Below, piece after piece: positions 7,386 to 11,884 of a DNA stretch of 11,884 bases. The notes under the pieces were generated by a model. The model was not told the DNA's origin, made no database searches, and was given only the letters and a program-made list of their open reading frames with translations. Numbering within the stretch: the first letter of the stretch is position 1; each line of letters starts with the position of its first letter. The position numbers and the translations under genes are program-made. The stretch is from a virus (lineage: Duplodnaviria; Heunggongvirae; Uroviricota; Caudoviricetes): IMG/VR virus record IMGVR_UViG_2541047849_000001; one strand, 5' to 3'.

Positions 7386-8762
7386 ATGGATTTATCCTCA
7401 TTTCCCACCCGACCTTCATTACTTTCGTCGTCTTCAGGCTGGCGTGACAGACTTCAGGACGCGTCATTTCGCGGCGTGCCGTTTAAGGTTGAAGAAGAAA
7501 GTGCGGGAACCGGTCGCCGTGTGGAAACACATGAATACCCGAACCGCGACAAACCCTATACCGAAGACCTGGGGAAAATCACTTTTCGCCCGTCCATCAC
7601 GGCTTATGTGGTGGGAGATGACTGCTTTGACCAGCGCGATCGCCTGATTGACGCGCTGAATAAACCCGGTCCCGGCACGCTTGTCCATCCGACATACGGT
7701 GAGCTGAAAGTCTGTGTTGACGGAGAAGTTCGGGTCAGCACATCGAAGAGTGAAGGGCGTATTGTCCGCTTTGACCTGAAGTTTGTCGAAGCGGGAGAAC
7801 TCTCTTACCCCACTTCAGGTGCGGCGACGGCGCAGACGCTGATGTCATCCTGTTCTGCACTGGATGACTGCATCAGTGACAGCTTCAGAGGTTTCAGTAT
7901 CGATGGCGTGGCGGATTTCGTGCAGAACGACGTCGTTGGTAATGTCAGCACAATGCTTGGGTATGTTTCTGATGCGATGAAAGTGGTGGATTCTGCCGTA
8001 TCGGATGCTGCCAGGCTGTTGCAGGGGGATATCTCGGTACTTCTGCCGCCACCATCGTCAGGCAAAAATCTCGTTGAGCAGGTGCAGAAAATGTGGCGTA
8101 CCGGGAAACGCCTTTATGGTAACGCCAGCGACCTGGTCACCATGATCAAAACGCTTTCCGGTGTCAGCCTCGGCAGCGATCTGCAACCGCGCGGCGTCTG
8201 GAAAACGGACAGTAAAACCACCGCCACGGCTACGCAGCAGCGTAATGTGGTTGCCAGCACCCTTCGTACGACCGCAATCAGTGAAGCGGCGTATGCCGTC
8301 ACCCGATTGCCTGCGCCAACAACTTCCGCGGTGATGCAGAATTCCGCAGTGGGGCAGGCAACAACACCTGCGCAGAGCACTGGCTGGCCTTCCGTCACGC
8401 ATCCGGCACTGAACAATGCACCGGCGGTGAAAAACACGGTTGACCTGCCGACGTGGGAAGAACTGACTGACATTCGCGACACACTGAATACGGCAATTGA
8501 TAAGGAGTTGTCCCGTACAACCAGTGATGCGCTGTTTCTGGCGCTGCGCCGGGTGAAAGCAGATCTGAATGCGGATATCAACACGCGCCTTGAACAGTCT
8601 GCACGGATCATTCAGCGCACACCGGATGAGGTTTTACCCGCGCTGGTGCTGGCGGCGACCTGGTTTGATAACGCGGCGCGTGACGCGGACATTATCCGGC
8701 GTAATGCCATTACGCATCCCGGCTTTGTGCCGGTGATCCCTCTGAAGGTGCCAGTGCAATGA
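7386..8762 (+). CDS. Mu gpN-like DNA circulation protein (tail/baseplate-associated)
   Basis: 458-aa ORF with N-terminal region (...DASFRGVPFKVEEESAGTGRRVETHEYPNRDKPYTEDLG...) that I recognise as the DNA circulation protein N-terminal domain; GAGGT RBS; position after the tape measure. Confidence 0.88.
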   Translation: MDLSSFPTRPSLLSSSSGWRDRLQDASFRGVPFKVEEESAGTGRRVETHEYPNRDKPYTEDLGKITFRPSITAYVVGDDCFDQRDRLIDALNKPGPGTLVHPTYGELKVCVDGEVRVSTSKSEGRIVRFDLKFVEAGELSYPTSGAATAQTLMSSCSALDDCISDSFRGFSIDGVADFVQNDVVGNVSTMLGYVSDAMKVVDSAVSDAARLLQGDISVLLPPPSSGKNLVEQVQKMWRTGKRLYGNASDLVTMIKTLSGVSLGSDLQPRGVWKTDSKTTATATQQRNVVASTLRTTAISEAAYAVTRLPAPTTSAVMQNSAVGQATTPAQSTGWPSVTHPALNNAPAVKNTVDLPTWEELTDIRDTLNTAIDKELSRTTSDALFLALRRVKADLNADINTRLEQSARIIQRTPDEVLPALVLAATWFDNAARDADIIRRNAITHPGFVPVIPLKVPVQ

Positions 8763-9838
8763 ACGACAATGTCACGCTACGGGTAAATGGCCGGGAGTGG
8801 AATGGCTGGACATCGGTGCGCATCGGTGCCGGTATTGAACGGCTGGCGCGGGATTTCAGTGTGGAGATCACTCGCCAGTGGCCGGGAGATGAGGGTATCA
8901 CCACGCTTCAGCCGCGCATTAAAAACGGTTCAAAAGTGGAAGTGCTGATTGGTGATGAGCTGGTGATCACCGGCTGGGTGGAGGCGACTCCCGTTCGTTA
9001 CGATGCCCGTTCGGTCAGCACCGGTATTGCCGGACGTAGTCTGACGGCTGACCTGATTGACTGTGCAGCCGAACCGACACAGTTTAACGGACGCTCGCTG
9101 GTGCAGATTGCGCAGGCGCTTGCTGCGCCTTTCGGCATTGATGTGGTGAACAGCGGTGCGCCGTCGGGTGTTATTCCTGATGTTCAGCCTGATCACGGTG
9201 AAACGGTGATTGAGGTAATCAACAAAATACTCGGTCAGCAGCAGGCACTGGCTTACGACGACCCGCACGGCAGGCTGGTGATTGGCGGTATTGGCTCAAC
9301 GCGGGCACATACTGCGCTGGTACTCGGGGAAAACATCCTTTCCTGCGATACGGAGAAGAGTATCCGGGAGCGATTTTCTGTTTACCAGGTGGCGGGGCAG
9401 CGTGCCGGGAACGACGATGATTTCGGTGAGGCCACCACCACCGCGCTGCGGGCCCGCAAAGAGGACGCATTTATTGCCCGTTACCGTCCGATGTATATCA
9501 GGCAGACAGGGCAGGCCACGGGGGCAGGCTGTATTGCGCGTGCTGACTTTGAAGCCCGACAACGGGCGGCGCGGACGGATGAAACCACCTATTTGGTGCA
9601 GGGCTGGCGACAGGGTAACGGTACGCTGTGGCAGCCCAACCAGCGGGTGATTGTCTTCGATCCGGTCTGTGGTTTCGACAATACCGAACTGCTTGTCTCG
9701 GAAGTCACGTTCACTCAGGACCAGAACGGCACCATGACGGAAATCCGTGTCGGCCCACCTGATGCTTATCTGCCTGAACCCGAAGCCCCCGGCGCGCGGA
9801 AAAAGAAAAAAGCCAGAGTACAGGAGGACCCGTTCTGA
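8759..9838 (+). CDS. Mu gpP-like tail protein / baseplate hub
   Basis: 359-aa ORF, start overlaps gpN stop (ATGA); size and position match the Mu P family that follows gpN. Confidence 0.85.
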   Translation: MNDNVTLRVNGREWNGWTSVRIGAGIERLARDFSVEITRQWPGDEGITTLQPRIKNGSKVEVLIGDELVITGWVEATPVRYDARSVSTGIAGRSLTADLIDCAAEPTQFNGRSLVQIAQALAAPFGIDVVNSGAPSGVIPDVQPDHGETVIEVINKILGQQQALAYDDPHGRLVIGGIGSTRAHTALVLGENILSCDTEKSIRERFSVYQVAGQRAGNDDDFGEATTTALRARKEDAFIARYRPMYIRQTGQATGAGCIARADFEARQRAARTDETTYLVQGWRQGNGTLWQPNQRVIVFDPVCGFDNTELLVSEVTFTQDQNGTMTEIRVGPPDAYLPEPEAPGARKKKKARVQEDPF

Positions 9839-10251
9839 TGAGGACGATTGAAGCCATGCAGCGACAACTCCTCGGCCTGATTGGGCGGGCAGTGGTGAAA
9901 AGCATCAGTGCCGCCACGAAATGTCAGACCGTGGATGTGTCCCTGATTGCCGGTGAACCCAAAGCCGGGGTTGAACATCTTGAACCCTATGGTTTTACCG
10001 CAAGGGCAAACAGCGGTGCGGAAGCGGTGGTGTTGTTTCCGGATGGTGACCGTTCTCATGCGGTGGTTGTTACGGTGTCGGACCGGCGCTACCGCCTGAA
10101 AGGGCTGCAGACGGGTGAGGTGGCTGTCTATGACGATCAGGGGCAGTCCGTGACGCTGGCCCGGGAGGGGATCGTGGTGGACGGTGCAGGTAAAACGATC
10201 ACGTTTCGCAATGCGCCTATATGCGCTGGGAAGGTGTCAGCGATGGCCTGA
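9838..10251 (+). CDS. Baseplate spike protein, gpV family (Mu gp45-like), probably C-terminally truncated
   Basis: 137-aa ORF, start overlaps gpP stop (TGATG) with AGGAGGA RBS; contains a gpV-like region (EPYGF...VVLFPDGDRS...) and the start of the beta-helix, but ends short of the full length I recall for gpV/gp45 proteins (about 200 aa). Confidence 0.65.
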   Translation: MRTIEAMQRQLLGLIGRAVVKSISAATKCQTVDVSLIAGEPKAGVEHLEPYGFTARANSGAEAVVLFPDGDRSHAVVVTVSDRRYRLKGLQTGEVAVYDDQGQSVTLAREGIVVDGAGKTITFRNAPICAGKVSAMA

Positions 10252-11003
10252 AGGTGACTGCCGGGAGTGTTATTCAGCGCGATGACCTGGTTCAGTACAC
10301 GGCAACTGCCGATGCAACCAGCTCCGGTGGTGTCCTGCGCGTGCCGATCGCCTGCTCAACTGCAGGCGCGGTCGGTAACGCTGACGATGGTACGGCATTA
10401 ATCCTGGTCACGCCGGTGAATGGTCTGCCGTCTTCCGGTGTGACTGACACCCTGACAGGCGGATTTGATACAGAAGATCTGGAAACGTGGCGCGCCCGCG
10501 TCATTGAGCGGTATTACTGGACGCCGCAGGGCGGGGCTGACGGGGACTATGTCGTCTGGGCTAAAGAAGTGCCCGGCATTACCCGCGCATGGACATACCG
10601 TCACTGGATGGGAACGGGAACTGTCGGTGTGATGATTGCCGGCAGTGACCTGATTAATCCCATTCCGGAAGAATCAACGGAAACGGCGGCAAGACAACAC
10701 ATTGAGCCACTGGCCCCGGTGGCAGGCTCTGATTTGTATGTGTTCAGGCCGGTGGCGCATACGGTGGATTTTCATATCCGCGTGACGCCGGACACACCGG
10801 AAATACGGGCTGCCATCACCGCCGAGTTGCGTTCGTTCCTGCTGCGTGATGGTTATCCGCAGGGAGAACTGAAGGTGTCACGTATCAGTGAAGCGATTTC
10901 CGGTGCGAACGGGGAATATAGCCATCAGTTGCTTGCACCGGCGGACAATATCTCCATTGCAAAAAATGAGCTGGCAGTTCTGGGGACGATTTCATGGACG
11001 TGA
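10221..11003 (+). CDS. Baseplate J family protein (Mu gp47 / P2 gpJ-like), apparently lacking its N-terminal region
   Basis: 260-aa ORF with baseplate-J-like central and C-terminal sequence (...[34 protein letters not shown]...); in-frame stop at 10191 upstream; overlaps the spike ORF out of frame. Confidence 0.7.
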
Positions 11004-11578
11004 CAAACGATGATTATATCCGTCTGTTGTCGGCACTGTTGCCGCCCGGTCCGGCGTGGTCAGTCAGCGATCCGGCGATTGCCGGTGCAGCACCGTCATT
11101 AACCCGTGTTCATCAGCGTGCGGATGCCCTGATGAGGGAGCTGGATCCGCGCACCACCACCGAACTGATAAACCGCTGGGAGCGTCTGTGCGGCCTGCCG
11201 GATGAATGTATTCCCGCAGGGACACAGACCCTTCGCCAGCGTCAGCAACGGCTGGATGCGAAGGTTAACCTGGCGGGCGGCATCAACGAGGATTTTTATC
11301 TTGCACAGCTTGCTGCCCTGGGCAGACCAGATGCCACCATCACGCGATACGACAAAAGCACCTTCACCTGCTCATCGGCCTGTACTGACGCGGTGAATGC
11401 GCCGGAATGGCGGTATTACTGGCAGGTCAACATGCCAGCTGCCACCAACACCACCTGGATGACATGTGGTGATCCCTGTGATTCCGCACTGCGTATCTGG
11501 GGCGACACCGTTGTCGAGTGTGTGCTTAACAAACTCTGCCCTTCGCATACCTACGTAATTTTTAAATATCCGGAGTAA
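10994..11578 (+). CDS. Mu gp48-like baseplate/tail protein (YmfQ-like, DUF2313-type)
   Basis: 194-aa ORF overlapping the J stop; length and sequence match what I recall of the YmfQ/gp48 family that follows baseplate J and precedes the tail fibre in Mu-like modules (including prophage e14). Confidence 0.8.
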
Positions 11579-11581
11579 TCC

Positions 11582-11884
11582 ATGCATCGTATAGACACGA
11601 AAACCGCGCAGAAGGATAAGTTCGGCGCGGGTAAGAACGGTTTTACCCGTGGTAACCCCCAGACCGGCACACCTGCCACCGATCTGGATGATGACTACTT
11701 TGACATGTTGCAGGAAGAACTCTGCAGCGTGGTGGAGGCATCCGGTGCCAGCCTGGAGAAGGGGCGGCATGACCAGCTGCTTACTGCGCTTCGTGCGCTG
11801 CTGTTAAGCCGCAAGAATCCGTTTGGCGATATCAAATCTGATGGCACGGTGAAAACGGCTCTCGAAAACCTTGGTTTGGGAGAA
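11582..11884 (+). CDS. Tail fibre protein, conserved N-terminal domain (partial; runs off the window end)
   Basis: Open frame from ATG 11582 (GGAG RBS 5 nt upstream) to the window end with no stop, so not in the ORF track; translation [53 protein letters not shown]... is the conserved N-terminus of Mu S / Stf-type fibres. Confidence 0.8.

Follow-up and report, generated by a model that had tools for sequence, protein, structure and literature searches.

An 853-bp deletion in the baseplate genes of an SfV/SfIV-type prophage remnant at thrW of Escherichia coli KOEGE 7 (16a)

The baseplate operon and its missing segment

We examined a stretch of 11,884 nucleotides, IMG/VR record IMGVR_UViG_2541047849_000001 (the whole stretch is called the window below), which exact matches to two of its ORF products place on scaffold KE701198.1 of the draft assembly GCA_000459575.1 of Escherichia coli KOEGE 7 (16a). 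It carries an SfV/SfIV-type prophage remnant, with lambdoid early genes and a Mu-like tail, at the tRNA gene thrW beside proA. Within its baseplate operon (Table 1), an intact hub gene is followed by two short open reading frames (ORFs), one of 137 amino acids at 9838-10251 and one of 260 amino acids at 10221-11003, and then by an intact wedge gene of the gp48 type. The two short ORFs, whose GenBank proteins are ERB09986.1 and ERB09987.1, overlap out of frame by 31 nucleotides (10221-10251). The original prediction had read this arrangement as an internal deletion that fused a truncated spike gene to a truncated baseplate J gene, with a gp25-like gene missing between them; its coordinates for the ORFs and their overlap are all correct, as is the in-frame stop that it placed at 10191 (TAA, 10191-10193).

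In pairwise BLAST comparisons with the phages SfV, SfII, SfIV and vB_EcoM-689R6 (689R6), window positions 9600-10219 are colinear with the gp44-gp45 genes and positions 10218-11884 with the gp47-gp48-fibre genes, in both cases with no internal gaps. The identity of these flanks to the intact relatives, which also include a prophage of E. coli GF3-3, is 96-99%, with 96-98% for the four phages, and exactly 853 base pairs (bp) are missing between them, close to the 0.9 kb that had been estimated. A 1,601-bp query over the region matched 12 phage records in two pieces spanning 2,454 bp. The order hub, spike (182 amino acids), GP46 (141 amino acids, PF07409), Baseplate_J (352 amino acids) and gp48, on which the original prediction relied, is the one annotated in SfV, SfII, SfIV and 689R6, and the GF3-3 prophage, which occupies the same thrW/pao locus, has the intact order gp44-gp45-gp46-gp47-gp48. 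Since the gene order is intact in all these relatives, the deletion took the 3′ part of the spike gene (codons 128-182), the whole of gp46 and the 5′ part of gp47 (codons 1-92). Compared with the four intact phages and GF3-3, the fusion is thus accounted for by a single 853-bp gap.

The three deleted protein pieces were searched for by tblastn in the window and the surrounding 20 kb, where nothing better than E = 0.6 was found, while the same search in the GF3-3 control recovered all three at 96-100% identity. No gp46 gene separates the spike gene from the Baseplate_J gene here, PF07409 being absent, and the family is present in SfV (E = 5.9e-33) and the gene in GF3-3, which agrees with the predicted loss of the gp25-like gene.

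What is left of the two genes can be read from their domains. The Phage_Mu_Gp45 family (PF06890) falls on residues 17-84 of the spike ORF and is covered from profile position 1 to 68 of 68 (E = 7.9e-25), so that the N-terminal Gp45 domain, the hub-binding, OB-fold region, is kept. The C-terminal part, a beta-helix and a membrane-piercing, metal-binding apex, is incomplete, residues 128-182 being replaced by 10 out-of-frame residues: as 853 equals 3 × 284 + 1, the spike frame runs through 10 wrong-frame codons to a stop at 10249-10251. In the second ORF, the Baseplate_J family (PF04865) is covered from profile position 34 to 255 of 255 (E = 3e-48; 164.7 bits against a gathering cut-off of 21.1), where intact SfV covers 2-255. 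The native start of gp47 and its first 92 of 352 codons are gone, codons 93-352 are kept, and no Shine-Dalgarno-like sequence was seen in the 20 nucleotides upstream of 10221. Neither ORF covers its full protein.

Table 1. Features of the window (positions count from its first letter)
Feature	Position	Strand	Basis or remark
proA	1-1254		upstream of thrW
tRNA-Thr(CGT) thrW, SfV-type phage attachment site	1369-1444	+	ARAGORN; downstream of proA
Prophage tyrosine integrase, 387 amino acids, left end of remnant	1459-2622	-	PF00589; 97.9% identity to SfIV int region
Second, much larger deletion: early-region DUF1317/Dam joined to last ~88 sheath codons	4438-4443		SfIV homology from 4438
Amber codon TAG in tape-measure gene	6828-6830	+	CAG in SfIV; splits gene into ORFs of 458 and 175 amino acids
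Baseplate hub, Mu gp44 / P-like, intact, 359 amino acids	8759-9838	+	Pfam GpP-like_1st, Gp44-like_2nd, GpP_4th; length equal in SfV/SfIV
5′ part of Mu gp45-like central spike gene, codons 1-127 of 182	9838-10219	+	PF06890; 98.2% identity to SfV, SfII, 689R6 up to 10218/10219
Deletion junction, TA common to both parental flanks	10218-10219		base-by-base comparison; 853 bp absent
3′ part of Mu gp47 / Baseplate_J gene	10218-11003	+	PF04865; 260-amino-acid ORF 10221-11003 from internal Met93 of 352-amino-acid protein
Out-of-frame tail of fused ORF, 10 codons from gp47 DNA, then TGA	10219-10251	+	translation set against that of intact gp45
Mu gp48 / YmfQ-like wedge gene, intact, 194 amino acids	10994-11578	+	PF10076, E = 3e-26; same length as SfV, SfIV
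Tail fibre gene start	11582-11884	+	cut by scaffold gap after window

The junction and its distribution

The parental gp45 site reads GCAATGCGCCTA/AGGCACG (...GCGCCTA/AGG, the slash marking the joint), an allele carried by SfIV, SfII and GF3-3, and the parental gp47 site reads CCAGCGGGTA/TATGCGCTGG (...GCGGGTA/TATGCGC). In the window the two are joined as GCAATGCGCCTA/TATGCGCTGG (GCGCCTA/TATGCGC), and the sequence that marks the junction is GCAATGCGCCTATATGCGCTGGG. The only bases shared at the joint are the TA at 10218-10219, which is kept once; there is no filler and no inserted or insertion sequence (IS) DNA, and the flanks are uninterrupted. A direct repeat, ATGCGC at 10211-10216 and 10221-10226, had been put forward as microhomology at the deletion junction. 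The repeat lies where it was said to lie, but this role for it was rejected, as slippage between direct repeats would leave one copy and both survive. One copy comes from the gp45 flank and the other from the gp47 flank, with the crossover between them, and the repeat was therefore not the recombination substrate. Nor is it beyond chance expectation: the window has 47 direct repeats of six bases whose copies are offset by 6-15 bp (about 1 per 250 bp), compared with about 30 in shuffled sequence.

Since both copies of ATGCGC are kept and only TA is shared, the event is best seen as an illegitimate deletion that used 2 bp of microhomology, a type whose features are all present here (colinear flanks, a short shared sequence kept once, no insert). 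Codon 127 of the gp45-like spike gene was joined to codon 92/93 of gp47 at the shared TA, as expected of illegitimate recombination, whose route may have been either replication template switching or end joining at the microhomology.

In 5,426 complete E. coli genomes, no match ran across the whole of a 200-bp query centred on the junction, although 1,384 of these genomes hold its two halves at separate places. The exact junction, with two polymorphic bases made degenerate, was not found in GTDB species representatives or JGI metagenome contigs, and the deletion junction is present in none of the more than 120 IMG/VR contigs that carry the right flank. An exact match to the 137-amino-acid product exists on one contig only. 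The identical 260-amino-acid ORF lies on two further contigs, neither of which shows the deletion: on one (L006) the ORF is preceded by intact gp47 sequence and then by the contig end, and the other (L007) begins 2 nucleotides before the ATG, which makes it uninformative on the deletion. As far as these searches show, the junction is private to a single assembly, that of E. coli KOEGE 7 (16a), and no related phage or genome has the same arrangement. Neither of the two outcomes that had been named as refuting the original prediction was thus obtained, and the prediction is supported in all but the role that it gave to the ATGCGC repeat.

The remnant at thrW and its other lesions

The thrW gene beside proA is the integration site of the Shigella serotype-converting phages SfV, SfI, SfII and SfIV (PMC3636060). 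In the window, the tyrosine integrase gene adjoins the tRNA-Thr(CGT) gene downstream of proA, homology to the attP/int region of SfIV begins at position 1399, and the att/int DNA is SfV-group-like, which identifies the element as an SfV-like prophage of thrW. Its best DNA matches are the SfV, SfI, SfII and SfIV group, at 96-99% identity across the att/int region and the entire tail module. The early segment from xis to the sheath junction (2849-4437), which carries DUF4222, TraR/DksA zinc-finger, Dam methyltransferase and DUF1317 genes, does not resemble SfIV or SfV, and its matches, at 96-98.5%, are to other lambdoid phages, among them phi458 and PhiR30_1; this is the usual mosaicism for this phage group. 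Matches of 13-15 kb at thrW in many complete genomes were considered as similar remnants and rejected, as they are intact prophages whose attR matches window positions 1399-1444.

Besides the baseplate deletion, the remnant carries a much larger one that joins the early region to the sheath gene. Window position 4438 corresponds to SfIV 9014, which lies inside the sheath gene (SfIV 7773-9269), 256 bp before its end, and the left-flank homology ends at 4443, so that as many as 6 bp (TACCCG) are common to the two flanks. Because SfIV homology starts inside the sheath gene and is joined there to the early region, the lysis, terminase, portal and head genes and most of the sheath gene are gone. 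Hence, the remnant is not a complete inducible genome (terminase, portal, head, sheath, lysis); head and lysis genes are absent from the stretch that separates int from the tail genes. The early-to-sheath junction was found in none of the 5,426 complete E. coli genomes. A further lesion is the amber codon in the tape-measure gene (5454-7361; the intact SfIV gene has 1908 nucleotides), at a position where CAG stands in SfIV and also in 13 of 13 related loci, compared at the same 21-nucleotide anchor. The remnant thus has three or more inactivating lesions, the 853-bp scar among them, and is unable to produce heads, a sheath or a tape measure.

A run of 2,015 Ns in the source scaffold (L005 positions 11666-13680) starts at the equivalent of window position 11886, inside the tail-fibre/invertase region, so that the tail fibre gene is cut short by assembly and not by biology. 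The tail-fibre/invertase region at this gap is a repeated, invertible segment.

The e14 breakpoint, rival explanations and comparison with known systems

The gp47 end of the deletion was compared with that of the beeE′-′jayE deletion in the K-12 prophage e14, which spans about 12.75 kb and joins the portal gene to gp47 with a 4-bp overlap, GGTA. The e14 junction reads GGCTGTGTGGTA/TATGCGCTGG (GTGTGGTA/TATGCGC; K-12 e14 positions L009 3999-4002) and occurs in 284 of the 5,426 complete genomes. Homology to gp47 starts at SfIV 15645 in e14 and at SfIV 15647 in the window, so that a crossover in one and the same TA (SfIV 15647-15648) would fit both joints. The two deletions are nevertheless independent, since their left partners differ, their gp47 alleles differ at 30 of 784 positions (96.2% identity, the window fragment being no closer to K-12-type e14 than to SfV), and the closest relative of the window allele has intact gp47 sequence upstream. 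The chance of an endpoint match within 2 bp is a few per thousand, by a rough estimate from about two dozen endpoint comparisons and a 40-kb genome, which makes a real hot spot plausible, though one resting on two events.

That the TA in GGTATATG of SfV-type gp47 is a recurrent breakpoint for illegitimate recombination is thus possible, but we regard it as doubtful; if true, site-specific fragility, through hairpin-loop or topoisomerase cleavage, would shape the decay of this prophage family. The intact site forms the 8-nucleotide loop of a 6-bp inverted repeat, CCAGCG-GGTATATG-CGCTGG. As a cause of the shared breakpoint the hairpin is unconvincing, its stability being only marginally above that of shuffled sequence (z = -1.9 and -1.4 for the two strands), and a Pin/Hin-type invertase quasi-site was set aside because a comparison by eye with the consensus gave almost no match. 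Scans with right-flank patterns that excluded the intact or e14 upstream bases found no third junction type at the gp47 site in IMG/VR, JGI metagenomes or GTDB representatives, only intact sites with single-nucleotide polymorphisms (SNPs) or e14-type ones.

Two further observations on gp47 sequences were made alongside. In another E. coli (contig ABLSFV010000031.1 of GCA_030936295.1; L006, 1-800), the prophage that occupies the icd/e14 locus matches the 784 bp of the window at 100% identity in the 3′ part of its gp47 gene and has intact gp47 sequence upstream, so that the same tail-gene alleles circulate among prophages integrated at thrW and at icd. E. coli e14-type/SfV-type gp47 was also seen in two Gram-positive-labelled records, one of Brevibacterium sp. 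UMB10442 (L137, a 265-bp contig with a coverage of 0.9) and the other a Bacillota metagenome-assembled genome (L140), where it is almost certainly contamination or mis-binning.

The same evidence bears on explanations other than a deletion in this prophage. If the strain had an intact gp45-gp46-gp47 segment and the 853 bp had been lost in draft assembly or scaffolding, a junction confined to one assembly would be expected, and the scaffold is indeed a draft with its 2,015-N gap 1.7 kb downstream. However, the junction lies within contiguous sequence that has no Ns, its flanks share only TA and so hold no repeat for an assembler to collapse, and the remnant has two other independent lesions, as is typical of real decay; a join with a 2-bp overlap and no Ns is unlike the product of repeat collapse, and we consider such an artefact unlikely. 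Homology-facilitated illegitimate recombination with an e14-type remnant in place of a simple intramolecular deletion, in which pairing would have stopped at the beeE′-′jayE boundary and the free end would have been joined to gp45 at TA, could draw on a common donor junction and would fit the resolution of both junctions to the same gp47 TA. Against this, the SNP pattern shows no special closeness to K-12-type e14, the nearest relative (L006) retains intact gp47 upstream and the junction contains no portal-derived bases, which makes such a donor very improbable. The 31-nucleotide out-of-frame overlap can by itself resemble a recoding site or translational coupling, as would suit a natural compact baseplate, or a programmed frameshift that yields a functional spike-J fusion without a gp25-type protein. 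This is effectively refuted: more than 1,300 genomes and 12 of 12 matching phage records have the intact three-gene order and none has this arrangement, the spike has lost 55 residues from its C terminus, the conserved wedge component gp46 is essential in Mu (PMC11915804), and the prophage also lacks head and sheath genes.

Hence, the region is, with high probability, what a single spontaneous deletion of 853 bp left behind in the baseplate operon of an SfV/SfIV-type prophage at thrW of KOEGE 7 (16a). Some points weigh against this reading: the junction is seen in a single draft scaffold of the Illumina era, so that an assembly error is formally possible; the search behind the absence of gp46 covered the window and 20 kb around it, and a second gp46 or another Mu-like tail module might lie elsewhere in the genome; and the recombination mechanism is one that we infer from the junction alone. 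The event itself is prophage decay of an ordinary kind, private to one strain, in a phage family that is well known. Its significance is small, being a base-exact record of one decay step in a common E. coli prophage family, and its sole wider point is that one dinucleotide is the endpoint both of this deletion and of the e14 beeE′-′jayE deletion, which, if not a coincidence, would mark a small hot spot of illegitimate recombination.

The consequences for the baseplate can be gauged from phage Mu. There, three copies of gp45 form the spike, whose domains are an OB fold, a beta-helix and a metal-binding apex, gp46 is the wedge protein BW1, an essential and conserved protein that sits on the tube initiator and nucleates sheath assembly, and the wedge is a heterotetramer of one gp46, two gp47 and one gp48 (PMC11915804). 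The Mu counterparts of the genes considered here are gp46 (BW1, T4 gp25-type), gp47 (BW2, P2 J / T4 gp6-type) and gp48 (BW3). Residues 14-125 of Mu gp45 (PDB 9ki1_V) align to residues 5-116 of the intact SfV spike (E = 3e-14), residues 4-359 of Mu gp47 (PDB 9ki1_H) align to residues 7-351 of intact SfV gp47 (E = 4e-39), and the Pfam searches gave matches to each of Phage_Mu_Gp45, GP46, Baseplate_J and Phage_Mu_Gp48. Unlike Mu, the window copy has spike residues 1-127, gp47 residues 93-352 and no gp46. By analogy with Mu, the window proteins would be unable to form a Mu-type wedge heterotetramer or to build a baseplate, and the truncated products, and with them the 853-bp scar, are probably without function. 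The loss of the baseplate is moot in a prophage already without heads and sheath and with a broken tape measure. ERB09986.1 and ERB09987.1 are better treated as pseudogene fragments than as a 'phage tail protein' and a 'baseplate J/gp47 family protein'.

Like SfV, SfII, SfIV, SfI and vB_EcoM-689R6, the remnant has the tail module from sheath to fibre (at 96-99% identity), the gene order and the attachment site by proA. Unlike that group, it lacks the 853 bp (gp45 3′ end, gp46, gp47 5′ end) and the genes from the early region to the C terminus of the sheath, it has the amber codon in its tape-measure gene, and there are no gtr genes inside the window. Like K-12 e14, it is a decayed SfV-like element in which a 5′-truncated gp47 (jayE) is followed by an intact gp48/ymfQ; e14 also has stfE/tfaE and pinE. 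In contrast to the window remnant, e14 lies at icd and not at thrW, its deletion starts in the portal gene, and its junction is widespread, whereas the one described here is private.

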